Shown piece by piece: positions 738-53,400 of a DNA stretch of 64,000 nt. The notes beneath the pieces are model-generated. The model searched no databases. It worked only from the letters and a program-made list of their open reading frames with translations, and was not told the DNA's origin. This DNA is from Planctomycetota bacterium. GTDB lineage: Bacteria > Planctomycetota > GCA-002687715 > CAIWVZ01. A program made the position numbers and the translations under genes. The stretch spans positions 416,001 through 480,000 of the forward strand of contig JBGANV010000004.1 in assembly GCA_044222185.1 (NCBI GenBank), in the 5' to 3' direction. How positions within the stretch are numbered: position 1 is the first letter of the stretch; each line of letters opens with the position of its first letter.

Positions 738-753
738 GGCGAGACGGGGCTGA

Positions 754-33889: not shown

Positions 33890-33895
33890 ACCGCT

Positions 33896-33919: not shown

Positions 33920-33943
33920 GCCCTCACCAAACTGGATCCATTT

Positions 33944-35944
<2,001 letters not shown>

Positions 35945-37634: not shown

Positions 37635-40262
37635 ATGCTTCGCATCCCAAGGCTGATCTCGGAACAATTCGTGCGCAGCCGGCTCGCCCGGCGGGTCTTC
37701 GGTCTCGTCGTCGCCTGCGCGCTCGTTCCGCTCGCCCTGTTCGCCGTCGTGACGCAGTTGCAGGTGGGCGACGAGATCCGGGCACGTGCCGAGGCGCTCG
37801 TCCGGCACGAAGCCAAGATGTCCGGCGTCATCTTCTACGAGCGCTTGATCGTCCTCCTCTCCGACATGCGGACGCTCGCCAGCGATCTGAGGACGCGCGG
37901 CGGCGTCGACGCGGCCAGTCTCTCGCAGGAGTTGAGCGAGCTGTGGCGCGCGCGCGTCACATCGCTCGGGGTTGGGAGTTCGGACGGGTACTCCCGCGCA
38001 TTCATCGGAGCCAGGTTCTCGTTGCCGGAGTTCGACGCCGCGCAGCGCCAGCATCTGGCCCGCGGACCCGAGTTGCTCGTGTTGCGACCGGGGAACGTGA
38101 CGAATCCCCTCCAGCTCGTGATGACCTTCGACGATGCAAGGAGGGGCCGGTGCTACCTCGTCGCGGAGCCGAGCCCCGCATTCATCTGGAACCCGGACGG
38201 ATGGTTCACGCCGGACAGCGCGGTCGCCGTCATGTCGCCGTCTGGCGCCGGGCTGTTCACCTCGGTCGACGACCCGCCGCCGACGACCGTGATGGCGCAG
38301 GCGATCGAGAAGGATCCGTCCCAGGGAGCGCTGGCGTTCGGGGACGGTGACCGCGCCGAAGTCGGTGCCTACCGGACGTTGTTCCTCGAGCCCCACCTCG
38401 GGACGAATCTCCTCATCGTCCAGCATCGGCCAGTGCGTGACATCGAGGCGCCACTGTCGTCGTTCCGCTTCTGGTTCATCCAGGTAGCGACGCTGGCACT
38501 GCTCGGTGTCGCATTCGCGAGTTCCAAGATGATCCGCAGGATCCTCGCGCCGGTCGATCAGCTGCTCGCCGCGACGCAGCGAGTGGCACAGAAGGACTTC
38601 GAGTCCCGCGTGGCGATCACGTCACGGGACGAGCTCGGCGACCTGGGTCGGTCGTTCAACGAGATGACGGCGTCGCTCGCGCGCCATGAGAACGTCATGA
38701 CGGCGGTCAACGACATCGGCAGCACGCTCGGACGCACGCGCGACCCGGCGTCGATGATCGAGCAGATCGTCGGTGCCGGCGCGACGCTGTTCAACGCTGA
38801 TGGTGCCGCGGTCTACCTCAATGGAAGCGACGGGGTGCTCGGCCTTGCGCGCATGCGCATCGCGTCCCTCGACCTCACCATCGCCGGCAACTCGCCGGAG
38901 GCCGAGCGTCTCGAAACGGGCGCGTGTTCGCGCGTGCTTCACTCGATCGTCAGCGTCGAAGACGTGTACCGCCAGGATCCAGTGGCGTTCGAGCCGCAGC
39001 GCAAGCTCGACGAGGTCCTCGGCTACCACACGCGTTCGTTGCTCAACGTGCCCATGCGGGATCACGAAGGCGAACTGATCGGCGTCCTCCGCCTGTTCAA
39101 CGCCCGGAACCCCGAGACCGGCGAGGTCGTCACGTTCTCCGGGGAGGCCCTCCAACTCGCGGAGTCGCTCGCGGCACAGGCGGCCATCGCCGTGACGAAC
39201 AACAAGCTCGTCGCGGAGTTCAAGAACCTGTTCGACTCGCTGATTCAACTGCTCGCGGTCGCCATCGACGAGAAGTCGCCCTACACGGGCGGACACTGCA
39301 GGCGCGTTCCCGAAATCACCATGCTGATCGCGGATGCCGTCAGCCGTACGGCCACCGGCCCGTTTCGCGAGGTGTCGTTCTCGCCCGACGAGCTGTACGA
39401 GCTCAAGGTGGCCGCGCTGCTTCACGACTGCGGCAAGGTCGCGACCCCCGTCCACGTCGTCGACAAGGCGACTAAGCTCGAGACGATTCACGACCGGATC
39501 GAACTCGTGGACACGCGCTTCGAGGTCGTGCGGCGGGATCTCGAGCTTCGCGCCCTGGGCGAGGTGCGGCGGGAGTCCAGAAGCGGCGAGTCGGGCCGTG
39601 CCCCGAGCGCGCGACACGAGGAGGCCATCCGTCAGCTCGAGAGCGACCGCGCGTTCCTCCGCAAGGCGAACATCGGTTCGGAGTTCATGACGGCCGAGCA
39701 TCGGGAACGCGTTCGCGACATCTCACGCCGCTATCGGTGGCGCAACGTCGCGGGCGAGGAGGTCGATTTCCTCACGGCGGACGAGATCGAGAACCTCACC
39801 ATCCCCAAGGGCACGCTCAACCAGACGGAACGCGAGATCATCAATCTCCACGTCACGTCGACGATCCGCATGCTCCAGGCGCTGCCCTACCCGCGTGCGC
39901 TGCGGCGCGTGCCCGAGATCGCGGGCGCGCACCACGAGCGCATGGACGGCAAGGGGTATCCGCACGGATTGCGGCGCGACGACATCTCCCTTCAAGGCCG
40001 GATTCTCGGCCTCGCCGACATCTTCGAGGCGCTGACGGCCAAGGATCGCCCCTACAAGCCGGGCAAGAAGCTCAGCGAAGTCATGACGATCATGGGGCAC
40101 ATGGCGAACGAGGGGCACGTCGATCGGGACCTGTTCCGCCTGTTCGTCGAACAGCGCGTCTACCTGGATTACGCGCGGAGCATGCTCGATCCCGAGCAGG
40201 TCGACGCCGTGGACGTCGCGCGGATACCGAGCCTCGAGCAGCCCGAGTTCGCGTTCTCCTGA
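37635..40262 (+). CDS. Membrane HAMP-GAF-HD-GYP cyclic dinucleotide phosphodiesterase
   Basis: Two TMs, HAMP DELGDLGRSFNEM, GAF GYHTRSLLNVPM, LLHDCGK, HHERMDGKGYP. Confidence 0.93.
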   Translation: MLRIPRLISEQFVRSRLARRVFGLVVACALVPLALFAVVTQLQVGDEIRARAEALVRHEAKMSGVIFYERLIVLLSDMRTLASDLRTRGGVDAASLSQELSELWRARVTSLGVGSSDGYSRAFIGARFSLPEFDAAQRQHLARGPELLVLRPGNVTNPLQLVMTFDDARRGRCYLVAEPSPAFIWNPDGWFTPDSAVAVMSPSGAGLFTSVDDPPPTTVMAQAIEKDPSQGALAFGDGDRAEVGAYRTLFLEPHLGTNLLIVQHRPVRDIEAPLSSFRFWFIQVATLALLGVAFASSKMIRRILAPVDQLLAATQRVAQKDFESRVAITSRDELGDLGRSFNEMTASLARHENVMTAVNDIGSTLGRTRDPASMIEQIVGAGATLFNADGAAVYLNGSDGVLGLARMRIASLDLTIAGNSPEAERLETGACSRVLHSIVSVEDVYRQDPVAFEPQRKLDEVLGYHTRSLLNVPMRDHEGELIGVLRLFNARNPETGEVVTFSGEALQLAESLAAQAAIAVTNNKLVAEFKNLFDSLIQLLAVAIDEKSPYTGGHCRRVPEITMLIADAVSRTATGPFREVSFSPDELYELKVAALLHDCGKVATPVHVVDKATKLETIHDRIELVDTRFEVVRRDLELRALGEVRRESRSGESGRAPSARHEEAIRQLESDRAFLRKANIGSEFMTAEHRERVRDISRRYRWRNVAGEEVDFLTADEIENLTIPKGTLNQTEREIINLHVTSTIRMLQALPYPRALRRVPEIAGAHHERMDGKGYPHGLRRDDISLQGRILGLADIFEALTAKDRPYKPGKKLSEVMTIMGHMANEGHVDRDLFRLFVEQRVYLDYARSMLDPEQVDAVDVARIPSLEQPEFAFS

Positions 40263-40383
40263 GTCCTCGCTGGAGCGCGCTCTCACCGCTGGCCGCGCTG
40301 GCGCTGAATGCGGATTGAAGGCGCCCGCGCCGATGCCAGAATCGCCGGCCTGCAGAAGCCAAGTGCGCGACGACGGGGAGACC

Positions 40384-40575
40384 ATGGAGGTTCGATTCGA
40401 TTGCGTGTTCGAGGGGAAGAGGATCTTCCAGGTCGTCCATTCCCAGAGTGACGCGGCGCTGTTCACCGGTACCGCAGCGCAGTGCAAGCGATTCCTCGAG
40501 ATCCATCACGAGAAGGCTGATCGGGCGAGCGGGGTGAGGCGACCCGGGACATCCGATCTCTCGACGGAAGGTTGA
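40384..40575 (+). CDS. Small hypothetical protein (63 aa)
   Basis: GGGGAG RBS before ATG; protein-like composition (MEVRFDCVFEGKRIFQVV..). Confidence 0.5.
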   Translation: MEVRFDCVFEGKRIFQVVHSQSDAALFTGTAAQCKRFLEIHHEKADRASGVRRPGTSDLSTEG

Positions 40576-40841
40576 CGAGGCAGTGCGGCGGTGCGGGCTC
40601 CGGCTGGGGCGCGCCCTCCGACAAAAGAGCCGGCGAAGTTTGTTGCGCCGCCGAAGCGGCCACTGTAGTCTCGCGCCCCGTTGCTCCGGCCCGCCGCGGG
40701 CCGCTGCGTTTGAAGAGGGATGGACCTGGGGTTCGCATCGCCGCGTTGTGGCGACCGAAATGGCGTGGCATCGCTACGTGCGGGTTTCTCGTACGGACTG
40801 GCCAAACCAGGGCTTGTCGCATTCAACCGGAGTCGATGGGA

Positions 40842-42833
40842 ATGGCTCAGCCCGTTGCGCGCCGTGCGTTCGATCGCGTGCTGGTGATCATGTTCGAGAA
40901 CCAGTATCGCGGCTACGTCCTCGCCAATGCCTACATGCGCCAGTTGGCGAAGCGCGGGATCCAGCTCGGCAACTCGTTCGGGGTGATGCACCCCTCGCAG
41001 ACGAACTACATCGCGTCGATCGCGGGCGCGCTCTGCAACGTGACGAACGACGAAGTCCCGAAGCTGCTCACGGAGAAGACGCTTGCGGACCTCGTGCACG
41101 AGGCTCCGGGACGCCTAAGGTGGAAGGCCTACATGGACAGCTACGTCCCGGAGGCCACGCCCTGGACGCCGACCTTCACGCCGCGCGACGCACCTCCGTA
41201 CTACGTCAAGCACAACCCGTTTGCCTCGTTCGCGTCGGTCGTGCGCAACGAGGCGATGTGGCGATGCATCGACAACGAAGCCGGGTTCTTCGCCGACGTG
41301 CTGAACGGAACGCTGCCCGAGTTCTCCTGGTTCTCGCCGAACATCTGGAACGATGGCCACTGGCTCGACGGCACCACCGAAGAGTCCGTCCCTCGGGCGC
41401 CGGCCCTCGTCGACCAGGCCGCTCGGTGGCTCGAACGGTTCTTCAACCGGCTGCGGTTTCCCGGCGCCGACTCCCACCTTCCACCGGGGACCCTCGTCGT
41501 CGTGACGTTCGACGAGGCCGATTTCGAGGCCGACGATCTCCCAGAGCAGGCGTCGGCCTACGACGGCCCGAATCAGATCTACACCGTGCTGCTCGGTGAT
41601 CGCATCCGCCCCGGTTTCGAAGAGGAGGGCTTCAATCACTACAGCATGCTTCGGACGATCGAGATCAACTTCGGTCTGGGGCACCTCGGCCGCAACGACG
41701 CGGGGGCGAACTGGTTTCAGTTCCTCTGGGGGCGCCGTTTTCGATGGGGCCCGAGTCGGGAAACCCCGATCCACGGCGGTGGTGGTGTCTGCGCCGCAGG
41801 GCTCGGAGCGGCGCTCTTCGTCGCTCATGTGGGGGCTGATGGGGTCGTCCGCGTGAGAACGTATGCGGATGGGGCCTGGTCGGCCGCGGAGGACGTCCCG
41901 GTCGATGGGCGCGGTGGCGTCGCCATGGCGAGTACGTTTGAGCAGGTCGTGCTCGTCGCGTGTTCGGCCGGTGGAGCCGTTCATGCGACGACCTGGGATC
42001 CGCAGCATGGTTGGTCTGCACCGTCGGCGCGGCTGGACGGGCGGCGGATCACTGGCGTCGCCGCAGCCTCGTTCGACGGCGAACGGCGGATCATGCTGGC
42101 GATGAAGGACGATGCCGGGGGCATCGAGGCTCGCACGTGGCGGGGAGGGTCCTGGGGCCCGGCGGCCCCTGTCGGAGCCGTGCGATCCGAGGGCGCGATG
42201 ACGCTTGGCGCCTTGGGCGCGTCGCTCTACCTGATCGTCTCCGTCCCCGGCGAGAAGACCCTTCAAGTCGTGTCGTACAACTCGGCGGCGTTCAACGTTG
42301 TCACGGTCGCGAAGAACCCATACGGCGGCCCACAAGACGACACGACGGTCGATGAGTGGTCACCGTGCGCGTTTCCCGTGGCGCACTTCTCTTCGTGGCC
42401 GCAGCGGAACGAGTCGCGCGCGCCAACGACGCGAGCCTATGAAGCGGGCGGTCCTCTGGCGACCGCCACGCTCGACGGCGTCCTGCATCTGGTCCATCCG
42501 GGGGCGGCGAATTCGCTTCTACTCACGGAGACGTTCTCGATCGCCGGTTTGATGACGCCCTCGCAACCGGTCTCCTACAAGAGCCGGAGCGCCGCGAATT
42601 CGAGCAACGGGTTCGGAACCCTGGCCGAGGCCGGCTGGAGCAAGCAGGCAGCCCTGTTCGGGTCGCGGTGCGGGGCACGAGGTGCACTTGCCCTCGGGCG
42701 TGCCGATGGGCAGATCGTCCTCCTCTCGCGGGCCGAGGCTGGTTCCGCGGTGGAAATCCGCGTCGGACGGTACGTCGACGACGCGCAGCCCGAGCGTGTG
42801 TACGACGGGCATCGATCGAAGGAATGCCAATGA
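40842..42833 (+). CDS. Phosphoesterase (acid phosphatase/phospholipase C family) + beta-propeller-like C-terminus
   Basis: VIMFEN, HPSQTNY, YVKHNPF, NDGH, VTFDE, NHYSMLRTIE; Trp-ending blade-like repeats; no signal peptide seen. Confidence 0.88.
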   Translation: MAQPVARRAFDRVLVIMFENQYRGYVLANAYMRQLAKRGIQLGNSFGVMHPSQTNYIASIAGALCNVTNDEVPKLLTEKTLADLVHEAPGRLRWKAYMDSYVPEATPWTPTFTPRDAPPYYVKHNPFASFASVVRNEAMWRCIDNEAGFFADVLNGTLPEFSWFSPNIWNDGHWLDGTTEESVPRAPALVDQAARWLERFFNRLRFPGADSHLPPGTLVVVTFDEADFEADDLPEQASAYDGPNQIYTVLLGDRIRPGFEEEGFNHYSMLRTIEINFGLGHLGRNDAGANWFQFLWGRRFRWGPSRETPIHGGGGVCAAGLGAALFVAHVGADGVVRVRTYADGAWSAAEDVPVDGRGGVAMASTFEQVVLVACSAGGAVHATTWDPQHGWSAPSARLDGRRITGVAAASFDGERRIMLAMKDDAGGIEARTWRGGSWGPAAPVGAVRSEGAMTLGALGASLYLIVSVPGEKTLQVVSYNSAAFNVVTVAKNPYGGPQDDTTVDEWSPCAFPVAHFSSWPQRNESRAPTTRAYEAGGPLATATLDGVLHLVHPGAANSLLLTETFSIAGLMTPSQPVSYKSRSAANSSNGFGTLAEAGWSKQAALFGSRCGARGALALGRADGQIVLLSRAEAGSAVEIRVGRYVDDAQPERVYDGHRSKECQ

Positions 42834-45800
42834 GCACACCAAAGCAAGGCCGAGCGGCTCGAGATCCGTTGGAGTCGGCGTCGAGGACCGCGGCAGATCT
42901 GTCCACGGAACGGGCCCGGATGACGCACGATGCGGTCTGGCGCCTGGTGCAGCGTGGGCTGGTCTATCCGTCGCCGAATGCGATCTTCATCACGTTCTTC
43001 CGCAGTCGCAAGGCGTCGCCGCTGACGAAGGGGACCCTCGGCCAGGTGGTTCGTGGAACCCGCGCGCGGATCCATGCGGACTTCGGCAAGGCTCACACGA
43101 CGGCGATCCTGGGAGTCGGTTTCGATCTCTGGCGCGAGCTCTCCGCTCGGGACGGGACGTCGGTTCCCCTCGGGATGCAGCTCCACTCCGATGGTGAGAA
43201 AGCGGGCGGGGAGTCGTCCGACGGCGTGTTCGCGCGGCCGGGGACGGTTTTCGTCGACTCTGGCGCCGACCTGTGGTTCCACGTCAAGAGCGACAACCCC
43301 AAGCATTGCCAGGGCCTTCTCGAGTACTTGCGTCACGTGCTCGAGGTCGAGCTCGCGTGCATGGACCCGGCGCGGACCGTGTGGCAGGCGGCGGCGACCA
43401 AGTCCAACGCACCGGACCATCGGGGTGGCAAGGTGTTGGGCAGCCGGTTCTCCGAGAACCTCAACAACGCGACCGATCCCATCACGATCCAGCAGCAGAC
43501 GATCGTCGGGTTCGAGGATCCGACGCACATCGGTGGATCTTTCGTGTTGGCCCAGCGATTCGTGATCAACTGGGGGCAGATCCTCGCGATGGCTCCGCAG
43601 CACGTCGAAGACCTGGTGGGGCGCTCGACGGACGACCGGCTCGTCCCGTCCCACGATGACCGGAGCCACATCAAACGCGCTCGGGCGTTCGACGAGCACG
43701 GGAACGCCATGTCGGTCCTGCGGTTGGGCCTGCCATATGGTCGCTCGTCCGCGATCGAGAGCGACGACCTGCTCGCGAAGGGCGCGAGCCGTCGCGACGA
43801 GGAAGGTCTGTACTTCGCCGGGTACGCCAAGAGCGCGGCGGCGCTCGAGCGGATCATGGAGCAGCAGATCGGCGACGTCCCAGGGTTCATGTCCGACCGC
43901 TTGCTGGGGCACGTCCGCGCCAACCTCGGTGGCTTCTACTACGTCCCGAGCCTGCCCGATCTGGGGATCGAACCCGAGTCCGCGTCGTCGTGGCGGCGGT
44001 TCCCTGGGGTCGACTGGTCACGTCTGGATCGCCACTTCGACCAGACGTCGCCCAACGGCTACATGCACTACAACCACAAGGAGTACTTGTTCCGGATGGC
44101 GACGATGACGGCCGAGGAGCGAGCGACGTTCCTCCCGCCATCGCACCGCGTGCTCACTCTGCTCGCGGGCGTGTTCTCGCGCTGGCAGGACAACTGGTAC
44201 TTCGATCGCTCCCAGAAGGAGTTCTCCCACCTCCGCGTCTACCTCGAGCGCGAAGACGGACGCGAGGTGGCCGAGAAGGTCATGAGCCTCTCGATCGCCG
44301 AGCGCGGCGGCTGGGCGACCAAGGTCCTGCTGGGGCGCGTCCTCGTCAGCGACGAGTACGGGTTCCGGGGACGACGAAAGGATGGTCGCGGGAACCTCGT
44401 CAACGGTGCGGACACCTACCGGATCCACCCCAGCGAAATCCTCGTGGGTTCCATGCCGAATCTGGGCCTCGGCCAGGGAAAGCACCTCATCGATTTCGCG
44501 CGAGAGAGCGAACGGCTCGAGAACTTCTTCGACAACCTGAGCTATGCCTCGGGCGTCGGCCACATCGTCCCGCACTATGCGACGGCGCTGCGCGTCGGGC
44601 TCGGCCGGCTGACGGCCGACGTCGCCGCGCGGCGCGATCGGGCAAAGTCCGAGAGCAAGCGGCAGTTCTACGCCGGCGCGGTCCTCGCGCTGGAGGGCGT
44701 CGCCGAGCATTGTCGTGCGTTTGCACGGCTCGCCGCCAAGATGGCGGACGGCATGGGCCCGGGGCAGTCTGCGGAGCGGAGCAACCTTCAGGAGATCCGC
44801 GACCGGATGAACCGGATCGCCGAGACGGCACCCGCGACGTTCGTCGAAGGTGCGCAGCTCCTGTTCACCCTGCACTCGTGCCTCCATCACGCGGGCGAAC
44901 CGACCGCGATCGGGCGGATCGATCAACTCCTGCATCCGCTCTACGAGGCGGACGTCCGGGCCGGGCGCATAGACGAGAGCCTTGCGCAGGAAATCATCGA
45001 CTGCTTCTGGGTCAAGGTCGGCGAGAAGGCGCAGCTCAACCGGCAGTTCGTCGAGGATCACCAGGTCTTCGGGAACATGGCCATGGGAGGGGCGTCGGGG
45101 AACTACCCCCAGGGCTCCTCGCTGAATCAGTGGATCCAACAGGTGACCGTGGGCGGGACGATCGCCGACGACACGCCCGGCGCCGGGACACCGGCCTACA
45201 ACGACATCACCTGTCTGTGCCTCCGCGCCGCGCGACGGCTGCCGCTGAATGCACCGTGCCTTTCGCTCCGGATGCGGCCGGACATGCCGCAGGAACTGCT
45301 CCGCGAGGCCGCGCTCGCCATCCTCTCGGGTGGTGCCCACCCGGTCCTCGTTTCCGATGCGAAGGTCATTCCGGGGTTGGCGCAAAGCGGCGACGACGTC
45401 GGCCGCGGCACGCACGAAACGGCGTCGACGCCAGTCGCGGAGAAGGCCGCGGGGCTCTGGAACAGCAGGGTCCGCTTGCGAGATGCGCGCGATTACGCGT
45501 GTGACGGCTGTTACGAGCCGCAACTCACCGGCACGAGTTGGTTCACGCTGGGCGGAATGCCGTCCACGCAGCCGCTCGAGGCGGCCCTCAACCAGGGAAA
45601 GACGTGGCAGAGTGCGGGCCCCGTGTGGTTCCGTGGGCAGAAGGTGTCCTTCACCTCGGAGCCGGCGCGCGACATCCCGAGCTTCGAGCGCTTGCTCGAC
45701 CTCTACATCGAGCACCTGAAGTGGATGTACGCCAAGCAGGTCGACGGGCAGCTCGGACTCTTCGGCAGGATGAACTCCGTCTGCCCCGCTCCGCTGTTGT

Positions 45801-46750
45801 CGGTGTTCATCGAAGACTGCATCGACAAGGGGCTCGACTACTATGAGGGCGGCGCCCGCTACAACGTCGTGGCTCCGTGCTTCAGCGGGCTCTCGACGCT
45901 GATCGACTCGCTTTGGGCGATCCGCGCCATGGTGTTCGACGAGCGAACGGCGACGACGTCGCTCCCCGAACTGGTGACGGCGCTGCTCTGCAACTGGGGT
46001 GAGAACATGGCGGAGCCGTTCATCAGCACGCTCGAGGGGTCGGCGCGCATCGAAGCCCGTGCCGAGCGATTCCGCCAGCTCCGCGCCGTCGCCATGGCCC
46101 AGCCGAAGTTCGGGCGCGGGAATGCAGACGTCGATCGGTTCGGCGACGCAATCGTCGGCCGCATCGCTGCGGCAGCCGTCGACGTCTTCGTGAATCCGGC
46201 CGAGCGGACCGCGGCGAAGATGCTCGGTTTCGCGCAGCGCCTCGGGACCAAGGAGATGCCGTTCGGCGGGTTCCAAATCCAACCGGGCGTGGGTTCGTTC
46301 GAGAACTACCTCGACTGGGGGAACATGTCCGGCGCCTCGGCGGACGGGCGTCGCAGCGGCGATCCGTTCGCCTCCGACATCAGCCCGGCGCCGGGCTACG
46401 GCGATCGCGCGATCGACTCGCGCGAGGCTCCGATCATCCGTGTGATGGAGGGGTACTCGGGCCCCGGCATCGAGGCGATGTGGGACGGCGCTCCTGTCGA
46501 TCTGAACATCCGAGAGGACTTCCCGCTCGAATCGCTGGTCGCAGCGCTCGGCGCCTTCGCGCAAGGACGCGGGTCGTCGTTGATGACGATCACCTGCGCG
46601 GATGCGGCGACGATGGCGCAGGCGGCGCGAGACCCGGAGAAGTACGATTTGCTCCGAGTCCGCATGGGCGGTTGGACCGAGTTCTTCGTCGTGATGTTCC
46701 CGGCGCATCAGGCCCAGCACCAACGTCGCCCCATCAGCACCGTGGAGTGA
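42830..46750 (+). CDS. Dyp-type peroxidase / glycyl-radical enzyme (PFL superfamily) fusion
   Basis: DyP: DLWFHVKS, GGSFVLAQRF, SHIKRA, LRLGLPYG, GLYFAGY, GGFYYVPS; GRE: GRIDQLLHP, DGCYEP, PKFG, ASADGR, RVRMGGWTEFF. Confidence 0.9.
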   Translation: MSTPKQGRAARDPLESASRTAADLSTERARMTHDAVWRLVQRGLVYPSPNAIFITFFRSRKASPLTKGTLGQVVRGTRARIHADFGKAHTTAILGVGFDLWRELSARDGTSVPLGMQLHSDGEKAGGESSDGVFARPGTVFVDSGADLWFHVKSDNPKHCQGLLEYLRHVLEVELACMDPARTVWQAAATKSNAPDHRGGKVLGSRFSENLNNATDPITIQQQTIVGFEDPTHIGGSFVLAQRFVINWGQILAMAPQHVEDLVGRSTDDRLVPSHDDRSHIKRARAFDEHGNAMSVLRLGLPYGRSSAIESDDLLAKGASRRDEEGLYFAGYAKSAAALERIMEQQIGDVPGFMSDRLLGHVRANLGGFYYVPSLPDLGIEPESASSWRRFPGVDWSRLDRHFDQTSPNGYMHYNHKEYLFRMATMTAEERATFLPPSHRVLTLLAGVFSRWQDNWYFDRSQKEFSHLRVYLEREDGREVAEKVMSLSIAERGGWATKVLLGRVLVSDEYGFRGRRKDGRGNLVNGADTYRIHPSEILVGSMPNLGLGQGKHLIDFARESERLENFFDNLSYASGVGHIVPHYATALRVGLGRLTADVAARRDRAKSESKRQFYAGAVLALEGVAEHCRAFARLAAKMADGMGPGQSAERSNLQEIRDRMNRIAETAPATFVEGAQLLFTLHSCLHHAGEPTAIGRIDQLLHPLYEADVRAGRIDESLAQEIIDCFWVKVGEKAQLNRQFVEDHQVFGNMAMGGASGNYPQGSSLNQWIQQVTVGGTIADDTPGAGTPAYNDITCLCLRAARRLPLNAPCLSLRMRPDMPQELLREAALAILSGGAHPVLVSDAKVIPGLAQSGDDVGRGTHETASTPVAEKAAGLWNSRVRLRDARDYACDGCYEPQLTGTSWFTLGGMPSTQPLEAALNQGKTWQSAGPVWFRGQKVSFTSEPARDIPSFERLLDLYIEHLKWMYAKQVDGQLGLFGRMNSVCPAPLLSVFIEDCIDKGLDYYEGGARYNVVAPCFSGLSTLIDSLWAIRAMVFDERTATTSLPELVTALLCNWGENMAEPFISTLEGSARIEARAERFRQLRAVAMAQPKFGRGNADVDRFGDAIVGRIAAAAVDVFVNPAERTAAKMLGFAQRLGTKEMPFGGFQIQPGVGSFENYLDWGNMSGASADGRRSGDPFASDISPAPGYGDRAIDSREAPIIRVMEGYSGPGIEAMWDGAPVDLNIREDFPLESLVAALGAFAQGRGSSLMTITCADAATMAQAARDPEKYDLLRVRMGGWTEFFVVMFPAHQAQHQRRPISTVE

Positions 46751-46753
46751 GCG

Positions 46754-48154
46754 ATGACCAACAAGAACGCAGTCAGCACGTACCTCGTGGAATCAATTCC
46801 CATCGGTCTCGAGGATCTCCGTGGGACGATGGGAGTGCAGTACACCGAGGACGTCCTCGTGCGGCTGGTCCGCGGCGCGAAAGAGTCCATCGACCTCACT
46901 GCGATGTACTGGAACCTCCTGCCGGATCCGGACGGTGACGACGAGAAGGGGTTCACGGCGCAGCAATTCGACGCCATGGGCGCCGCGACCGGCCGCAACC
47001 TCTTCGAGGCCCTTCGCGACGCGGCGCGCCGCAAGGTGCGGATCCGGATCGTCGAAAGCCCAGGATTCTCGGGGAAGAGGCAGGAGTCGACCGACCTCAA
47101 GGAGGCCTTCCCAGACTGCGTGACCGTCCGCCAGATATCGATGAACGACTGGTATGGCGGCGGGATCATGCATCAGAAGATCTGGGTGTTCGATGCCTGC
47201 CACGTCTACGTCGGCTCCGCCAATATGGACTGGAAGTCCATCATGCAGGTCAAGGAGATGGGCGTCGTCGTCGAGAATTTGCCCCCGTTCGCGCAGGACG
47301 TGACCCGGTACTTCGAAGGGTGGTGGGCGTTCTGCGCGCTGAAGCCGGCCACGGCCGTCGCGTTCGATCCGAGGGCGGGTGTGGAGCGCCTGGTGCCGCC
47401 CTGGTCGGCGCTGCTCCACGAAGCCCAGCGAAAGCCATCGCCCTTCGACGACGATCGTTTTCGCTCGGACGCGAACCGCTCGAAGCCCCTGTCGGTCCCG
47501 TTGGATGGTCAGACCGCCGGCTTCTTCTTGACTGGGTCGCCCGACGAAGTGCGTGGTCGAGGCAGGACGCTCGATGCGGACGGATTGGTCTACACGATCG
47601 ACGATGCGAAGAAGTCGATCTGCGTGAGCGTGATGGACTTCGGGCCCATGAGCCTGTACTCGCGGGCGCCACTGGGGCCCGGCGCCACGCGGGGGATTCC
47701 GACGGACACTCCCGTTTGGTGGCCGCAGCTGTTCGACGCCCTCCTCTCGGCGGTCCTGACGAGGAACGTCCACGTCCGCCTCCTGGTCAGCAAGTGGGCT
47801 CACACCTCTCCACTGATCGAGCCGTTTCTCGCGGCCTTGCAGCACGCGGCGGACGCCGGCCGTGTGGATCCTCGAATGTCGAGCGGCCAGCTCGAGATCA
47901 AGCTGTTCGTCATCCCGGGCTGGGACCAGACCGCAGGGACTCACCGGCGCTACCCGGGCCACAGCCGCGTCAACCACACGAAGTACATCGTGACGGACCG
48001 GCGCATCAACATCGGGACGTCGAACATGACGTGGGACTACTTTGCGGCAACCGCCGGCGGCAGCGTGAACACGGACCACGTCGGCCTCGTGTGCAGCTTG
48101 CAGGCCGTGTTCGACCGCGACTGGGGATCGAGCTACGCGTATCGGTTGGCCTGA
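46754..48154 (+). CDS. Phospholipase D superfamily, PLD3/PLD4/poxvirus K4L-like
   Basis: LVESIP; two HKD motifs HQKIWVFD..GSANMDW and HTKYIVTD..GTSN. Confidence 0.9.
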   Translation: MTNKNAVSTYLVESIPIGLEDLRGTMGVQYTEDVLVRLVRGAKESIDLTAMYWNLLPDPDGDDEKGFTAQQFDAMGAATGRNLFEALRDAARRKVRIRIVESPGFSGKRQESTDLKEAFPDCVTVRQISMNDWYGGGIMHQKIWVFDACHVYVGSANMDWKSIMQVKEMGVVVENLPPFAQDVTRYFEGWWAFCALKPATAVAFDPRAGVERLVPPWSALLHEAQRKPSPFDDDRFRSDANRSKPLSVPLDGQTAGFFLTGSPDEVRGRGRTLDADGLVYTIDDAKKSICVSVMDFGPMSLYSRAPLGPGATRGIPTDTPVWWPQLFDALLSAVLTRNVHVRLLVSKWAHTSPLIEPFLAALQHAADAGRVDPRMSSGQLEIKLFVIPGWDQTAGTHRRYPGHSRVNHTKYIVTDRRINIGTSNMTWDYFAATAGGSVNTDHVGLVCSLQAVFDRDWGSSYAYRLA

Positions 48155-48160
48155 ACGCGT

Positions 48161-48180
48161 CGCCGCACCATGGTGCGGCG
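48161..48180. repeat. Perfect 20-bp palindrome
   Basis: CGCCGCACCA|TGGTGCGGCG just after the PLD stop. Confidence 0.85.
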
Positions 48181-48221
48181 TCGGAACGGCGGTCGAACCG
48201 CTGGCACAGTGAGGATGAATC

Positions 48222-50225
48222 ATGGCGAAACGAACTCAGACGCCTGGAAAGCGCAGCGGGAAGGCGAGGAGTAGGACGGCCGCCGCCACGGGCGCGCCCA
48301 GGCCTCGCTCGCAATCGGGCCACAAGCCTTGGCTGGACGTTGCCGCGCCGGCGACGCGCGCGCTGCGGATCTACACACAGGACCCGAGTGCCGGGACCTA
48401 CGTCGGCAACCTAAGCACCGTTCACGTGCCGTGGGAGGCGGTGAGGCCCGGGCCCGTCGGCTCCAAGGTCGCCGTCGTCGATTACGACGCGTCGAATCGC
48501 TGCTACTACACCCCGATCGACCTCGATCATCCCTTCGTGCTGGCTCGCGACGGCGTCGACCCCTCCGAGTCGGATCCGCGGTTCCATCAGCAGATGGTCT
48601 ACGCCGTCGCGACGCGGACCATCGAGATGTTCGAGGCCGCGCTGGGGCGGAAGATCCGATGGCGACGTGCGGATCGCTTCTCCGACAAGTCCAACGAGCA
48701 GCAGTGGCACAAGACGGACGACATCGAGGTCCTCCATCTCTACCCCCATGCGATGCAGGAGGCGAACGCCTATTACAGTCCGCAGGCCCACGGCATCCTG
48801 TTTGGATACTTCACGGCGAACACGACGCGGCAAGGGCGCAACCTGCCGGGGCAGCGGGTCTTCACGTGCCTCTCGCACGACATCATCGCCCACGAAGTGA
48901 CGCACGCGATCATCGACGGGATCCGCACGTACTTCACCGAGGCGACGAATCCGGATGTCCTTGCATTCCACGAGGGCATCGCCGATGTCGCGGCGCTGTT
49001 CGCCCATTTCACGCAACGTGATGCCTTGTTCGAGACGATCAGGAAGACGGGCGGACGCTTGTACCAGGCGGACCTGGATGCGGATGCCTGTGGCAGCGAC
49101 CGTTCCGGTCACATGATCGCGGCCCAACGTCGCGAGGTGAATCCGTTGATCCAGCTCGCGCAGCAGTTCGGGGAAGCGCGGGGCACGGGACGCGGGCTTC
49201 GTTCAGCCTTGAGCACGCCGCCGTCGCCGGACGACATCGAAAAAAAGCCGACCGAGCCGCACACGCGAGGCGCCATCCTCGTCGCGGCCGTCTTCGATGC
49301 CTTCTTCTCGGTCTACGCGCGCAAGAGCGCCGACTTGTTCCGCATCTTCCACGCTGGCGGCGGGCGCCCCGACCAGGACGAGGTGCCAGCGCCGCTCGCG
49401 GAGCAACTCGCGCGCACGGCCACGGACCTCTCCCAGCGTTTCTTCCGGCTCTGCGTCCGGGCTCTCGACTACTGTCCGCCGGTCGACATCACGTTCGGCG
49501 ACTACTTGCGCGCCCTGATCACCGTCGGCACCGAGCTTCACCCGGAGGATCCCGATCGCATCCGTGACGCGCTCATGCAGGGCTTCCGGCTGCGCGGGAT
49601 CTTCCCGGAGAGCGCGAGTTTCTTCTCCGAGGACGCGTTGCGGTGGCCCCCCATGTTGCCTGGGATGCTCCCGCCGATCGGAGCACGGACGATCGGCGAT
49701 CCGCAGACCGGACGCAGCCTCGTCACTGGGCTGGTCTTCGGCGGGCCCAACGGCCTCACGCGACGCGAGAAGGACATCAACGGCCGCGTCCTGCGGGCCT
49801 ACATGAAGGAGAACGCCGCGGCGCTGGGCCTCGATCCGAAGTTGCCGGTCTCCGTCCCCTCGTTCCATCCGATGTTTCGGTCGGGGGATGACGGACGGAC
49901 CCGCGCCGAGATGGTGGTCGAGGTCGTGCAGCTGAGACGGGCGCCGTTCGATCCGGCGGTGACCGGGGTTGGGGAGTTCCCATTCCGCGGAGGCGCGACT
50001 GTGATCATTTCGGCACCGGAGGTTGCGCCTGATTCCTCGGGAAGCCTCACGGCGAAGGACCCGGAGATCCGCTTCGTGATCGGGAAACCGATTTCTGGGC
50101 CGGGAGGTGTCCAGCGCGAGTCCGCTCAGCGGCACTTCACGCTGTCCCTGGGCCTCGCGCAGGGGCACTGTGACGATGCCCGGCACTTCCAGGTGAACTT
50201 CGCATTGTTGCATGGAGACGGCTGA
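48222..50225 (+). CDS. Gluzincin metallopeptidase (M4/M36-like)
   Basis: NAYYS, DIIAHEVTHA, third-ligand FHEGIAD, EPH. Confidence 0.85.
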   Translation: MAKRTQTPGKRSGKARSRTAAATGAPRPRSQSGHKPWLDVAAPATRALRIYTQDPSAGTYVGNLSTVHVPWEAVRPGPVGSKVAVVDYDASNRCYYTPIDLDHPFVLARDGVDPSESDPRFHQQMVYAVATRTIEMFEAALGRKIRWRRADRFSDKSNEQQWHKTDDIEVLHLYPHAMQEANAYYSPQAHGILFGYFTANTTRQGRNLPGQRVFTCLSHDIIAHEVTHAIIDGIRTYFTEATNPDVLAFHEGIADVAALFAHFTQRDALFETIRKTGGRLYQADLDADACGSDRSGHMIAAQRREVNPLIQLAQQFGEARGTGRGLRSALSTPPSPDDIEKKPTEPHTRGAILVAAVFDAFFSVYARKSADLFRIFHAGGGRPDQDEVPAPLAEQLARTATDLSQRFFRLCVRALDYCPPVDITFGDYLRALITVGTELHPEDPDRIRDALMQGFRLRGIFPESASFFSEDALRWPPMLPGMLPPIGARTIGDPQTGRSLVTGLVFGGPNGLTRREKDINGRVLRAYMKENAAALGLDPKLPVSVPSFHPMFRSGDDGRTRAEMVVEVVQLRRAPFDPAVTGVGEFPFRGGATVIISAPEVAPDSSGSLTAKDPEIRFVIGKPISGPGGVQRESAQRHFTLSLGLAQGHCDDARHFQVNFALLHGDG

Positions 50226-50227
50226 AC

Positions 50228-51706
50228 ATGGCGACGCGAAAGACCCGTTCCTCTTTGAAGTCGCCGGCCACGAAAAAGCCGGCCTCGTCCCCGCGCGCAC
50301 CGCGCAGGACGGGCGCGAAGGCTGCGGCTCGTGGACCCGGTCGCAAGGTGAGCTCGGCGCGCGGTTCCGTCCGCGTGCGCATGTACCGCGTCGGGTTCGG
50401 CGACTTCTTCCTCTTGACGGTGCCGGGCAACGACGGGCCGGCGCACATCCTTATCGACTGCGGCGTTCACGCCGCGAACATCGGGACGATGGACGCATGC
50501 GTCAAGGACCTCGTGAAGGCTACGGGCAACAAGCTCGCGCTGGTGATCGTCACGCACTACCACGCCGATCACATCTCGGGTTTCGCATCGAACTACGATG
50601 ATTTCGCGAAGTTCGATCACATCGGCGCCGTTTGGATCACCAATCGGCTCGACCCGAGCGACACCGGCAAGTCGAAGTTCCTCGCGCAACTGACGTCCGT
50701 GGCGCAGCAGTTGCAACTGCACCTGGGCGTGAGAGACGACGACGCGGCCGTCGAGGCGCGGTCCAAGGTCGAGAACGCGCTTGGTGTGGCCGCAGGTGGA
50801 GGGTCGAACGCCAAGGCGCTCCAACTCCTGCGGAGCGGCTTCAAATCCAAACCTCCCGTGCACTACTACCAGGGAGGGGACACCCCGTACCTGCCGCCGG
50901 AGCTCGATGGCGCGATCGAGGCCGAGATCCTCGCTCCATCGCCGAAGGACTCCGGTGGCGAGTTTGCTGCGAGCGACAACAAGACGGAGCAATATCTCGC
51001 GGCGGTCGGCGCCGACGGGCTCGAGGATCAGACTCGCGTGCAGCCGTTCGAGAAGGACTGGCCCGCGACGGCCGCGTCCTATCCTCCTGAGGCCTTCGAC
51101 GAGTTCGACTCGGGAATGGTCCGCGGGAGCAAGGCCCGGAACGCGGACGGTGCGCGTGCGATGGAGTCGTTGCTCGAGACGATGCAGCCGGACGTGCTCG
51201 CGGCCACCGCCGACAAGCTCGATGGCACACTGAACAACCAGAGCCTCGTCGTCCTATTCACGTGCCAGGGCAAGAAGCTTCTTTTCGTGGGCGACGCGCA
51301 GTGGGGCAACTGGGCCTACTGGCTCTACGGCAAGGCTGTCACAGGCAAAGACCCGGGAATCACCGACCGCGCGAAGCAGATCCTCGGCTCCATCGATTTC
51401 TACAAGGTGGGGCACCACGGCAGCACGAATGCGACGCCGATCCCGGCCGTCGCGGCCTTGAACAGCAGCTGCGCAGCCATGTGCTCGACGGCAACCGGCG
51501 CCTACGGTGATTCCAAGAAAGGCACGGAGGTCCCGCGCACCGTCCTGATCGAGAGCCTGGAGAAACAGCTGAAGAATCGACTCGTCCGCAGTGACTGGGT
51601 TGCCGCCTCCGGCGTCAAACCCGATCCGGAAGCGCTCGAAGAGATCCGGACGCTTCCCACCGGGTTTTCGACGCCCGGCGACCTGTACATCGACTTCACG
51701 CTCTGA
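50228..51706 (+). CDS. MBL-fold metallo-hydrolase (ComEC/Rec2-like)
   Basis: VGFGDFFLL, LIDCG, THYHADHISG, NNQSLV, LFVGDA, KVGHHGS. Confidence 0.9.
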   Translation: MATRKTRSSLKSPATKKPASSPRAPRRTGAKAAARGPGRKVSSARGSVRVRMYRVGFGDFFLLTVPGNDGPAHILIDCGVHAANIGTMDACVKDLVKATGNKLALVIVTHYHADHISGFASNYDDFAKFDHIGAVWITNRLDPSDTGKSKFLAQLTSVAQQLQLHLGVRDDDAAVEARSKVENALGVAAGGGSNAKALQLLRSGFKSKPPVHYYQGGDTPYLPPELDGAIEAEILAPSPKDSGGEFAASDNKTEQYLAAVGADGLEDQTRVQPFEKDWPATAASYPPEAFDEFDSGMVRGSKARNADGARAMESLLETMQPDVLAATADKLDGTLNNQSLVVLFTCQGKKLLFVGDAQWGNWAYWLYGKAVTGKDPGITDRAKQILGSIDFYKVGHHGSTNATPIPAVAALNSSCAAMCSTATGAYGDSKKGTEVPRTVLIESLEKQLKNRLVRSDWVAASGVKPDPEALEEIRTLPTGFSTPGDLYIDFTL

Positions 51707-52036
51707 GCAGTCTGCCGACTCCATCTCGGTCGCTGCTTTCGGCGCGTGGCGGTCCGCCCCTGGGACGCCACATCGCGGTTTGAAACGACCTGATCGGCCT
51801 CCGTCAGGTCGCTGGCGCATGCCCCGCGCCGATTTCCTGCGAGGAGAAATGCAGGCTCCGAGAAGCCGCGAGTTGTCCCGAATGCAACGGCGCGATGCAG
51901 AGGCCCGGCGCGCCGGGCGAAGTTTCCGCGTTGCTGCTCGCGCCGATGACCACGTTTCCGCGGCGGCGTGAAGAAACCTGTCGCGCCGCGCGATCCATCC
52001 CGCTCGAACCTCCTGGATCGAAGAGGAGGCTCACCG

Positions 52037-52591
52037 ATGGAAGATCGCGAATGGACTCCGCTCGTCGATGAACTGCGAGCGGGGCGGATTGCAGCTTGGA
52101 ACGTGGCGTGCGAGGAGCTTCGACCGCGTGTCGTCGCCTACGTGGAGCGTCTCGGCGCCGATCGGCACGGTGCGGAAGACGTGGCGCAGGACGTGTTGGG
52201 CACCGTGTACGGGAAGCTCGATCGACTGAAGCGATCACGTCGCTTCTTGTCCTGGGTGATGGCCATCGCGCGGAACCGCCTGCGCTCGCGCGTGCGCGCC
52301 CGCCGTCCCACCGAAGAGCTGAGCGAGGAGATCGCGATGCCGACGGCCAACGGGCTCGATCGGATCTTCGGCGACGATCTGCGTCGTGCGGTGATGCGGG
52401 AAGTCCGACAGCTGGCCGAGCCCACACGGCGGATGGTCGAGCTTCGGCTGTTCGAGGATTGCGCTCCCCACGAGATCTCTCTTCGACTCGGGCTGCCCTG
52501 CGCCTTGGTCCGCCGTCGCTCGCACGACGCCATGTGCATGCTGCGCCGTCGACTGGCGCGCCGCATCGGCCATGGCCCCGAGTCCTCCTGA
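52037..52591 (+). CDS. ECF sigma factor
   Basis: GGAGG RBS; AEDVAQDV, FLSWVMAIARN, region-4 EISLRLG. Confidence 0.88.
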   Translation: MEDREWTPLVDELRAGRIAAWNVACEELRPRVVAYVERLGADRHGAEDVAQDVLGTVYGKLDRLKRSRRFLSWVMAIARNRLRSRVRARRPTEELSEEIAMPTANGLDRIFGDDLRRAVMREVRQLAEPTRRMVELRLFEDCAPHEISLRLGLPCALVRRRSHDAMCMLRRRLARRIGHGPESS

Positions 52592-52659
52592 ACACCTGAT
52601 TCGGCCGGCCGCGGGGTCGGCTTCGTTTCGCCAAGTTCGTGAACATCTGGAGTCGTGAC

Positions 52660-53400
52660 ATGAAATCGATCGCTCTGTTCTTGTCGTTCGTGTTCGTCGT
52701 TCCATCCGTGGCGCTCGCGCAAGACAACGCCAAGTCCATGCTGGACGTGGCGGCGAAGAAGGCAGCCTCCGGCAAAGGCAAGGTCGGTGAGGAGCTGAAC
52801 GGCATCCTCAAGGAAGCGGCGGGGCTCTATGACCAGGTCGCCGCGAAGTTCCCCGCGGCGCAGACGGAGTGTGCACATGCCCATCTGGAGGCCGGGCGTC
52901 TGCGCAAGCGCGTCGGGGATCTCGCGGGCGCCGAGGCATCGTTGAAGCTCACGGCCGCGGTGGCGGCCGAGCCCAAGTTCGCGTCAGAAGCCCTGCACGA
53001 CCTGGCGACGATCTATCGGAAGACGAAGCGGGCTGCGGAGGCGCAGCAGGCACTCGAGCGGATCGTCTCGGAGTTCCGCAACGAACCCCGCCAGAGAGCG
53101 GAAGCGCTGAGCCGTCTGGCGGCCATGCACCGCGCCGCGAAGAAGCCGGATCTCGCCGAGGCGTCGCTCCGCCAGATCCTCAGTGACCACGGTGATCTGT
53201 GGAGTGCATCCACGGAGGCCCTCGACGATCTGGTGGCCCTCCAGATCGCTCAGGGCCAGGAGGCGGAAGCCAAGAAGACCCTCGCCGCGCAGGGCGAAGC
53301 GTTGAAGACCCGTTTCCACGGGACGCGCCACGAAGGGCGGTTGAAGGTCGTCCTGGATCGGATCGCGCTTCGGTTCAAACTCGACGATGACGGTGAGTGA
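52660..53400 (+). CDS. Secreted TPR protein
   Basis: Signal peptide ending ALA; TPR-like helices. Confidence 0.8.
   Translation: MKSIALFLSFVFVVPSVALAQDNAKSMLDVAAKKAASGKGKVGEELNGILKEAAGLYDQVAAKFPAAQTECAHAHLEAGRLRKRVGDLAGAEASLKLTAAVAAEPKFASEALHDLATIYRKTKRAAEAQQALERIVSEFRNEPRQRAEALSRLAAMHRAAKKPDLAEASLRQILSDHGDLWSASTEALDDLVALQIAQGQEAEAKKTLAAQGEALKTRFHGTRHEGRLKVVLDRIALRFKLDDDGE

Follow-up and report, generated by a model that had tools for sequence, protein, structure and literature searches.

A five-gene block around a peroxidase-glycyl radical enzyme fusion recurs in the same order across bacterial phyla and may be a mobile conflict or stress system

We analyzed a 64,000-nucleotide (nt) stretch of the genome of a Planctomycetota bacterium (contig JBGANV010000004.1, positions 416,001 to 480,000; hereafter, the window), in which an earlier reading of the letters alone (the original prediction) had singled out a candidate novel system. 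Five same-strand open reading frames (ORFs), g1 to g5, occupy positions 40842 to 51706 with junctions of -4, 3, 67, and 2 nt (Table 1). They encode a phosphoesterase (g1), a DyP-type heme peroxidase fused to a glycyl radical enzyme (DyP-GRE, g2), an enzyme of the phospholipase D (PLD) superfamily (g3), a zinc metallopeptidase (g4), and a metallo-beta-lactamase (MBL)-fold hydrolase (g5). The g1 and g2 frames overlap by an ATGA at 42830-42833, and alternative start codons are possible for g1 (ATG at 40836) and g2 (ATG at 42824, likewise overlapping g1). None of the five proteins has a signal peptide or a transmembrane segment: the maximal Kyte-Doolittle 19-residue mean was 1.64, and no hydrophobic peak lay within the first 50 residues of any of them. 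Family scans with Pfam, NCBIfam, and PADLOC found no transporter, regulator, or activase inside the block. The sequence thus bore out the ORFs, the junctions, and the lack of signal peptides and of such genes as originally predicted, and the lack of an activase extends to the whole genome.

Co-occurrence of the five homologs in other genomes had been set beforehand as the test of a conserved multigene unit. We scanned one genome per species for relatives of the DyP-GRE, kept the best 80 of 143 as loci, and searched these for g1, g3, g4, and g5 by tblastn (E ≤1e-5). The order g1-g2-g3-g4-g5 was found at 3 of the 80 loci, in metagenome-assembled genomes (MAGs) labeled Myxococcales (L009), Reyranella (L010), and Acidobacteriaceae (L030, where g1 is truncated by the contig end). 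Partial forms were present at three others (g1-g2-g3 at L008, g1-g2 at L007, and g2-g3 at L006), and the remaining 74 had g2 only. The six loci with the block or a part of it are exactly the six whose DyP-GRE is at least 70% identical to that of the window. At L006, the order is a PLD-like protein, DyP-GRE, g3, an S8 subtilase, and an MBL of the g5 kind, the last matched end to end by the PADLOC LmuA model (5e-48). Since the subtilase stands at the g4 position before an MBL of the same kind, a different protease fills the g4 slot, and L006 thus holds a comparable block of five genes in which non-orthologous proteins stand in for two members. Recurrence of this gene order in other phyla shows that chance alone does not account for the arrangement; the expected unit was found in three other genomes, with partial or analogous forms at four more places.

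The DNA and the genes around the block are unrelated between loci, and the unit therefore runs from g1 through g5; a sixth gene or common flanking DNA was sought across the loci, and none was found. Among 300 other genomes of the host phylum, none yielded the DyP-GRE fusion; only plain GREs of ~30% identity were found there. Searches of the family to which the Reyranella MAG belongs (0 of 60 genomes for the fusion) and of the phylum to which the Acidobacteriaceae MAG belongs (0 of 400 for g3) found nothing either, but these two presence/absence tests among relatives are uninformative because the genes are too rare. Among 72,556 plasmids, g3 had a single match, the conjugative plasmid pBq66S1MBa of Bradyrhizobium quebecense (L115), on which only 40 residues of the DyP-GRE C terminus remain ahead of g3 (68% identical), g4 (59%), and g5 (70%). 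This remnant (L115 7340-7458) shares 81 to 93% identity with residues 1267-1306 of the window protein and occupies the spacer that separates g3 from a GMC oxidoreductase gene; the conjugative plasmid thus carries the block in decayed form. Among 50,697 phage records, none contained the DyP-GRE fusion and one contained g4.

Orthologs of g3 adjoined DyP-GRE or its remnant in all 7 places seen with flanks, a count that is not unbiased, as 6 of them were found via DyP-GRE itself. As an indirect signal of adjacency, metagenome clusters had longest contigs of equal size for 14 g3/g4 pairs, 5 g3/DyP-GRE pairs, and 3 g4/DyP-GRE pairs. We then built a g4 tree of 49 rows, leaving out L107 (tandem duplication), L110 (no clean ORF), L116 (S8 fusion), and the partial loci L087, L089, L090, L092, L093, and L114. 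A single clade with 100/100 support holds the five block-linked g4 sequences, 15 metagenome g4s whose cluster matches a g3 or DyP-GRE cluster in longest-contig size, and 15 other g4s of ~60% identity, and it excludes all 14 g4s from loci without g3. The identity matrices of g1 to g5 all show the same pattern, in which the window and L009 stand apart and L007, L008, L010, L030, and L115 are closer to one another. By these comparisons, the block-linked g4-g5 pair is no random insertion. Independent distribution of the first three and last two genes, which the original prediction had named as a point to check, thus describes g4-g5 at large, which is widespread alone, but not the block-linked copies, whose g4s form their own clade and whose five genes share one divergence pattern.

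We next consider the proteins, beginning with the fusion. The DyP half of g2 scored 111 bits with TIGR01413 (curated cutoff, 100.5) and 4e-14 with PF20628. Its SHIKRA motif (proximal His) and LRLGLPYG stretch (distal Arg) align with SHIKRV and LRQSMPYG, respectively, of the solved DyP 2hag, and neither His280 nor Arg298 varies among 16 diverse homologs. The distal Asp of DyP-type peroxidases sits in a GXXDG motif. In the corresponding region, g2 has the stretch GSRFSEN, in which no Asp is evident and after which the alignments with solved DyPs begin; Arg206, Phe207, Glu209, and Asn210 of this stretch are invariant in the 16 homologs.

The GRE half matched the pyruvate formate-lyase (PFL)-like family PF02901 (E 2.1e-101, residues 564-1114) and is closest to solved propanediol/glycerol dehydratases and choline trimethylamine-lyase (5i2a, 2.4e-44; CutC and 1r8w, ~1e-40). 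As in the glycyl radical 1,2-eliminases, whose Cys loop (GCxE motif, followed by Pro) and Gly loop align with g2, DGCYEPQ corresponds to IGCVEPQ, and RVRMGGW corresponds to VRVAGYS of the diol dehydratase 5i2a, with one extra residue in the loop. The isolated C terminus scored 20.4 bits with Pfam Gly_radical, just below the 22.2-bit cutoff. All 16 of the diverse homologs compared retain Cys894, Glu896, Gly1280, and Gly1281. In contrast to these likenesses, NCBIfam equivalog scores fell far below their cutoffs, and the block differs from known eliminase systems in having no activase, microcompartment, or aldehyde-processing genes, in the fused heme peroxidase, and in its mostly aerobic lineages.

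GREs are catalysts of strict anaerobes that need a dedicated radical S-adenosylmethionine (SAM) activase. Searches with TIGR02494 and TIGR02493 found no activase above the model cutoffs in the 7.08-Mb, 93.8%-complete genome of the host itself, nor in the Myxococcales MAG, the Reyranella MAG, Acinetobacter nosocomialis, or Pedobacter soli. A match above cutoff was present in the Acidobacteriaceae MAG, off the contig of the block. An activase was thus lacking in five of six DyP-GRE carrier genomes, the host included; in a control set, 3 of 14 reference genomes had matches above cutoff. DyP-GRE homologs (523 proteins at E ≤1e-3 among 8000 candidates scored) span many phyla and some eukaryotes, and the lineages that carry them are mostly aerobic. 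Fusions of the same two-domain architecture ("DyP B-PFL") have been noted in fungal and proteobacterial genomes as hypothetical proteins whose significance "remains elusive" (PMC5041501), and the same paper points to a putative PFL activase in the fungus, in contrast to the five activase-less bacterial genomes here. A literature search found no conserved gene neighborhood reported for this fusion, nothing linking DyP with GREs beyond that source, and no description of the five-gene block.

g3 contains the Pfam domains PLDc_2, PLDc_3, and PLDc. In phmmer searches against solved 5'-3' exonucleases, it was similar over its full length, in two stretches, to PLD3 (E 1.6e-56) and PLD4 (E 1.5e-49), as the original label "PLD3-like" implied, and it also matched the poxvirus nicking-joining enzyme. 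It shares with these enzymes two HKD motifs and PLDc_3, and differs from PLD3/PLD4 in being bacterial, in lacking the N-terminal membrane anchor or signal, and in lying in an operon-like block. From this similarity, g3 is a probable 5'-3' exonuclease. g1 matched PF04185 (phospholipase C [PLC]/acid phosphatase, alkaline phosphatase-like) with 58.7 bits (E 7e-16; cutoff, 23); the domain spans residues 1-300 and covers only profile positions 111-355, the C-terminal two thirds. The C-terminal ~350 amino acids (aa) had no Pfam match. Sequence searches reached no solved relative of g1 with which to align its catalytic nucleophile and metal ligands. Its two-domain architecture comprises ~20 to 25 clusters at 50% identity, and its orthologs at L007-L010 and L030, 59 to 64% identical, lie immediately 5' of DyP-GRE.

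g4 had no match in Pfam, NCBIfam (E 0.01 or better), or PADLOC, nor in a profile search of the PDB. An AlphaFold model from a 20-sequence alignment (pLDDT 76, pTM 0.81) was therefore compared by its fold with Foldseek: the best 30 PDB matches were all M4 or fungalysin M36 peptidases (probability ≥0.99), the highest being thermolysin, fungalysin, aureolysin, ProA, and LasB (probability 1.00), with target TM-scores of 0.45 to 0.61. All 20 sequences keep H224, E225, H228, and E251. g4 thus shares the fold, the HExxH motif, and the downstream Glu ligand with thermolysin (M4) and fungalysin (M36) but has no family-model match, signal peptide, or propeptide and carries an extra C-terminal domain of ~180 aa. 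Because Foldseek finds M4/M36 while the family models miss g4, the "M4-like" label given to it originally holds by fold and not by sequence family. Some g4 relatives (P0154, P0155, P0176, P0210, P0235, and L107 2857-6594) are 1120 to 1250 aa long and look like tandem duplications with a degenerate metal motif in the N-terminal copy and an intact HExxH in the C-terminal copy. We considered whether the long relatives P0154 and P0235 are g4-g5 fusions and rejected this, as MBL similarity is absent from them.

g5 matched Lactamase_B in Pfam and, partially, three PADLOC models (LmuA, 4e-20; reverse transcriptase [RT]-associated MBL, 3e-10; Avs1a, 1e-9). A profile of the g5 family found ComEC MBL domains (1e-11, 2e-9, and 9e-9) before all other solved MBLs; the ComEC MBL domain is a DNase. 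The g5 proteins of the block clade start with long tails rich in Lys, Arg, and Ala that resemble histone H1, and the 47-aa N-terminal tail of the window protein has 14 Lys or Arg and no Asp or Glu. The prediction that all five proteins keep their catalytic motifs holds for the proximal His, distal Arg, and Cys loop of g2, the HKD motifs of g3, HExxH of g4, and HxHxDH of g5; it is less certain for the Gly loop of g2, which aligns but scores just below the family cutoff, for the distal Asp of the DyP domain, which is not evident, and for g1, which has no solved relative to check against.

Away from the block, g4 and g5 form a pair of their own. The g4 family is very large, with at least 8000 relatives at E ≤1e-3 (all candidates scored passed), the best 120 of which are 42 to 64% identical. 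In the phylum of the host, g4 was present in 10 of 300 other genomes; g5 followed it immediately at all nine adequately flanked loci, often overlapping or ~10 nt apart, and g1, g2, and g3 were absent from all nine. A metagenome scan with a single g4 query gave eight loci, four with g5 after g4, two too short, and two without g5. Fifty-two plasmid records, 35 of them conjugative, contained g4. In ten plasmid neighborhoods, g1 and g2 were always absent and g3 was present in one only (Bradyrhizobium), and the annotated neighbors of g4-g5 included a CBASS cyclase (two), DUF1837 plus helicase, presumably Hachiman (two), SIR2 (one), CHAT plus VapC (one), and integrases, ThiF, or JAB (four) (Table 1). 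A TIR-NACHT protein and a large AAA_16 ATPase lie downstream of g4-g5 at L111 and L112, respectively. The peptidase-MBL pair is therefore an abundant independent cassette with swappable partners (patatin, PLD, ATPase) in plasmid defense islands; it is unnamed and is not in PADLOC 2.0.0, and no metalloprotease-MBL anti-phage operon was found in the literature.

Other enzymes adjoin the cassette at single loci. A fusion of a GMC oxidoreductase and an alpha-beta hydrolase lies immediately 5' of g4-g5 at L112 (4649-8017), and an S41 peptidase and a di-heme cytochrome c peroxidase lie immediately 3' of it at L108 (2229-5830). Such redox enzymes may reflect a peroxide theme or coincidence. The GMC oxidoreductases near g4-g5 at L115, L112, and L010 were rejected as a recurrent orthologous partner, since they share ~25% mutual identity. 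At L116, the 1032-aa protein encoded at 5726-8824 is annotated as an S8 peptidase, and its g4-like region is 40% identical over residues 40-596.

We also asked what accompanies DyP-GRE at the 80 loci, using the adjacent ORFs as seeds; Pfam was run on 46 chosen neighbors out of 782 ORFs. No neighbor was common to all loci. A recognizable partner was present at 20 loci, a lower bound because Pfam covered only these 46 of the 782 neighbor ORFs, and at 18 of the 20 (18 of 80 in all) the partner was a phosphoesterase or a nuclease (Table 1). All partner matches lay within 3.7 kb of DyP-GRE, while most loci reach ~10 kb on either side. Clear signal peptides are present on the 5'-nucleotidase, S1/P1 nuclease, RNase T2, and DUF2608 partners, and none was seen on the PLD-like proteins, on the trypsin fusions, or at any of the 18 DyP-GRE N termini inspected. 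ClpB or a KatG-type peroxidase adjoins DyP-GRE in some genomes. A DUF2278 protein adjoins DyP-GRE on Asticcacaulis and Ralstonia plasmids and g4-g5 on a Mesorhizobium plasmid; DUF2278 is thus a partner common to both modules and links them. Searches for it found no solved relative and no informative literature.

Table 1. Features of the block in the window, and genes and neighborhoods at other loci
Feature	Sequence	Position	Strand	Description
g1	Window	40842..42833	+	PF04185 phosphoesterase plus ~350-aa C-terminal part
g2	Window	42830..46750	+	DyP-type heme peroxidase fused to PFL-like glycyl radical enzyme (DyP-GRE)
g2 DyP domain	g2 protein	aa ~40-380		Dyp_perox_C; TIGR01413, PF20628
g2 GRE domain	g2 protein	aa ~560-1306		Eliminase-type, PFL-like
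g2 proximal His motif	Window	43664-43681	+	SHIKRA
g2 Cys-x-Glu motif	Window	45503-45523	+	DGCYEPQ
g2 Gly loop	Window	46655-46675	+	RVRMGGW
g3	Window	46754..48154	+	Two-HKD enzyme, PLD3/PLD4 type
g3 HKD motifs (two)	Window	47171-47194; 47975-47998	+	HxKxxxxD
g3-g4 spacer	Window	48155..48221	+	67 nt; 8-bp palindromic stem and GAGGA ribosome-binding site
g4	Window	48222..50225	+	Thermolysin-fold (M4/M36-like) zinc metallopeptidase
g4 HExxH motif	Window	48891-48905	+	HEVTH
g4 Glu ligand motif	Window	48966-48986	+	FHEGIAD
g5	Window	50228..51706	+	MBL-fold hydrolase, ComEC-like nuclease branch
g5 HxHxDH motif	Window	50555-50572	+	HYHADH
DUF2278 gene	L121	4823-5893		
DUF2278 gene	L122	10000-10731		
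DUF2278 gene	L124	10614-11660		
DyP-GRE partners: block clade	6 loci			
DyP-GRE partner	L006, L034, L044, L067			PLD-like protein, ~600 aa, four phyla
DyP-GRE partner	L020, L042, L046, L050, L081			5'-Nucleotidase
DyP-GRE partner	L042, L046, L050, L081			S1/P1 nuclease with 5'-nucleotidase
DyP-GRE partner	L052			RNase T2
DyP-GRE partner	L049			NPP phosphodiesterase
DyP-GRE partner	L013			Trypsin-EndoNS fusion
DyP-GRE partner	L033			Trypsin-EEP fusion
DyP-GRE partner, non-nuclease	L043			Trypsin-like protein
DyP-GRE partner, non-nuclease	L048			DUF2608 protein
g4-g5 neighborhood	Three rhizobial plasmids			Patatin-g4-g5; two with CBASS cyclase, two with DUF1837 plus helicase
g4-g5 neighborhood	Two Hymenobacter plasmids			SMC-like ATPase, then g4-g5; JAB protein alongside
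g4-g5 neighborhood	Methylorubrum extorquens CM4 pCMU01 (L116)			S8/g4 fusion, then MBL, between SIR2 genes
g4-g5 neighborhood	Deinococcus plasmid			Integrase, then g4-g5; patatin and ThiF protein nearby
g4-g5 neighborhood	Mesorhizobium plasmid			g4-g5, then DUF2278
g4-g5 neighborhood	Hymenobacter APR13 plasmid			g4-g5 near ThiF, S8, and DUF2235 genes
g4-g5 neighborhood	Bradyrhizobium plasmid			Decayed block near CHAT and VapC genes

Within the window, the spacer between g3 and g4 has its GAGGA ahead of the g4 ATG and a perfect palindrome at 48160-48179 (cgccgcac catg gtgcggcg) with no T-run downstream, a possible hairpin for RNA processing or attenuation where the modules meet. The 579-nt gap 5' of g1 (40263-40841), whose sole content is one ORF of 62 to 86 aa (40315-40575), is likely the promoter or regulatory region of the block, and a sigma-70 consensus scan of it found nothing; in its 86-aa form, the ORF is not conserved at the other loci. 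A promoter and terminator scan of positions 39800 to 53000 gave nothing beyond shuffled expectation. The genes 5' of the block encode thiolases, an enoyl-CoA hydratase, and aconitase-family, pilin-like, and HAMP-GAF-HD proteins, and those 3' of it encode a TPR protein and a photolyase-like protein. The aconitase-family gene (33890-35944) is set among two thiolases and the enoyl-CoA hydratase, and its product has the Aconitase_C swivel (residues 114-162) before the main Aconitase domain (246-667).

We compared the block with known defense systems. The defense MBLs Avs1a, MBL-type LmuA, and RT-associated MBL match g5 in PADLOC or NCBIfam, but the match to Avs1a of AVAST type 1 is partial (45.7 bits versus a cutoff of 420). 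No STAND NTPase, SMC-like LmuB, or reverse transcriptase lies within window positions 36 to 57 kb, and the block is thus not an AVAST type 1, Lamassu, or DRT system. For DISARM, DrmC scored 47.5 bits against a cutoff of 133, and DrmA, DrmB, and methylase genes are absent around the block. The defense-system search that the original prediction proposed as a check therefore returned partial g5 and g3 matches but no known system. Since membership fails for canonical GRE systems, which have an activase, for AVAST, Lamassu, and DRT, for DISARM, and for sequence-defined M4 peptidases, we rate the combination, on genomic grounds only, as outside known kinds.

Together, these observations show one discrete, horizontally mobile block built from modules, whose five genes diverge in concert and encode cytoplasmic enzymes, three of nuclease or phosphoesterase character, one protease, and one activase-less peroxidase-GRE fusion. 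As to its function, we tentatively propose, with somewhat less than even confidence, a mobile cytoplasmic system for conflict or stress that would attack nucleic acid and be coupled to peroxide-gated radical chemistry. Such a conflict system would most likely be defensive, abortive-infection-like, or stress-triggered. One module would be the activase-less DyP-GRE with the PF04185 phosphoesterase, the hinge would be the PLD3/PLD4-type HKD exonuclease, and the other module would be a specialized lineage of the common peptidase-MBL cassette. The HKD exonuclease and the putatively DNA-binding MBL nuclease would cut nucleic acid, the phosphoesterase would trim phosphorylated ends or nucleotides, and the peptidase may activate or accompany the nucleases. 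The DyP domain could draw on peroxide to generate or sustain the glycyl radical; oxidative conditions would thereby gate the eliminase chemistry of the GRE, which would act as a trigger or an additional effector. We favor a conflict or stress role because of the defense-island company and interchangeable partners of g4-g5 relatives, the non-orthologous replacement of the protease (M4-like, S8, and trypsin), the basic MBL tails, and the sporadic, plasmid-borne distribution. A bolder version, in which the DyP domain replaces the radical-SAM activase altogether, heme and peroxide installing the glycyl radical so that the GRE works in aerobic cells as the catalytic heart of a mobile conflict system, seems to us distinctly doubtful. 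The GRE could then dehydrate or fragment a nucleotide or a nucleic acid sugar in a manner resembling viperin or ribonucleotide reductase (RNR), the four other enzymes finishing the work.

Several observations weigh against a conflict or stress system. The block lacks genes for a sensor, for immunity, or for a regulator; PADLOC offers models for none of g1, g2, and g4 and matches g3 and g5 only partially; and the flanks of the block in the window hold ordinary metabolism and signaling genes rather than a defense island. Peroxidase activity of the DyP domain is not assured because the canonical distal Asp is not evident. At 48 to 74% identity across phyla, reaching eukaryotes, DyP-GRE is unusually conserved for a conflict gene, and it had no detected partner at 60 of the 80 loci with the seeds used. 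In Acinetobacter, it has an M23 peptidase on one side and ClpB on the other, and its neighborhoods in both Acinetobacter and Pedobacter are genus-conserved and housekeeping-like. The exported 5'-nucleotidase, S1/P1, and RNase T2 partners, found in Bacteroidota, Gammaproteobacteria, and one cyanobacterium, look like scavenging enzymes. This conserved, mostly solitary, housekeeping-like character, with exported scavengers alongside, keeps two other explanations alive, salvage and mere co-travel of the genes.

In a salvage pathway, nucleases and phosphatases would free nucleosides, sugars, or small alcohols that the eliminase-type GRE would dehydrate or cleave, with the peptidase and the MBL hydrolase as further degradative enzymes. 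We consider this unlikely, though it deserves serious attention given the scavenging enzymes beside DyP-GRE in other phyla (5'-nucleotidase, S1/P1, RNase T2, and NPP phosphodiesterase), the nearness of the GRE to diol/glycerol dehydratases and choline lyase with the GCxE motif, and the place of g1 in the PLC/acid phosphatase family. However, the five proteins of the window lack export signals, partners elsewhere are exported whereas DyP-GRE is not, no transporter belongs to the block, relatives of g4-g5 are found in defense islands rather than in catabolic operons, the trypsin-nuclease fusions without signal peptides would be odd in such a pathway, and the distribution is sporadic and plasmid borne. 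It is also rather unlikely that the genes have no joint function, g1-g2-g3 and a selfish or defense-type g4-g5 having become neighbors once and then hitchhiked on mobile DNA. That g4-g5 is self-contained and widespread without g1-g3 (the nine flanked genomic loci; the 52 plasmid records that carry g4), that L007 and L008 keep g1-g2(-g3) without g4-g5, that the plasmid copy retains g3-g5 after loss of DyP-GRE, and that the sole sizeable gap, with its hairpin, falls at the g3/g4 boundary would all agree with such co-travel. Yet a second, non-orthologous protease-MBL pair (S8 plus MBL) stands at the same position in L006, the block-linked g4s are an old and distinct clade, the five genes diverge in parallel, protease-nuclease partners recur at other DyP-GRE genes, and DUF2278 neighbors both DyP-GRE and g4-g5.

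Two further explanations have less in their favor. The block might repair oxidative or radical DNA damage, such as DNA-protein cross-links and blocked ends, beside a peroxide-consuming enzyme, the metalloprotease, HKD phosphodiesterase, MBL nuclease, and end-cleaning phosphatase making up a kit that presumably parallels the eukaryotic SPRTN, TDP1, SNM1, and PNKP. The basic, DNA-binding-type tails of g5, the peroxidase domain of g2, and the ClpB or KatG-type peroxidase near some DyP-GREs would suit this, but repair genes are seldom so sporadic or plasmid borne, the patatin, CBASS, and SIR2 contexts of g4-g5 relatives do not fit, and the need for a GRE eliminase would go unexplained, so that we find it improbable. 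Very improbable in our view is the phospholipid head-group pathway of the original prediction, in which the GRE would be supplied with choline, ethanolamine, or glycerol released by the PLD and the PLC-like phosphoesterase. In its favor are the phospholipases C among the members of PF04185, the place of g3 in the PLD superfamily, the likeness of the GRE to choline lyase and glycerol dehydratase, and the lipases (patatin and DUF2235) that accompany g4-g5 elsewhere. Nevertheless, g3 is specifically of the PLD3/PLD4 exonuclease type, the other partners of DyP-GRE are nucleases and nucleotidases that act on nucleic acids or nucleotides rather than lipid enzymes, the pathway offers no role for the peptidase or the ComEC-like MBL, and a membrane anchor and an export signal are absent. 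The other suggestion made at that time, a conflict or stress system in which a protease activates nuclease or lipase effectors, appears to fit the contexts of g4-g5 relatives better.

Retention of the radical Gly and Cys in a protein that is fused to a heme peroxidase, mostly without an activase and in aerobic lineages, invites the question of whether peroxide can drive the formation of a glycyl radical in a protein. The conserved neighbors, namely, a PLD3/PLD4-like exonuclease, nucleases and nucleotidases, and protease-MBL pairs, provide a first testable context for the DyP-GRE fusion. The pair of a thermolysin-fold peptidase and a ComEC-like MBL is a candidate new defense module. Finally, bacterial cytoplasmic homologs of PLD3 and PLD4 may illuminate the ancestry of the human lysosomal exonucleases.

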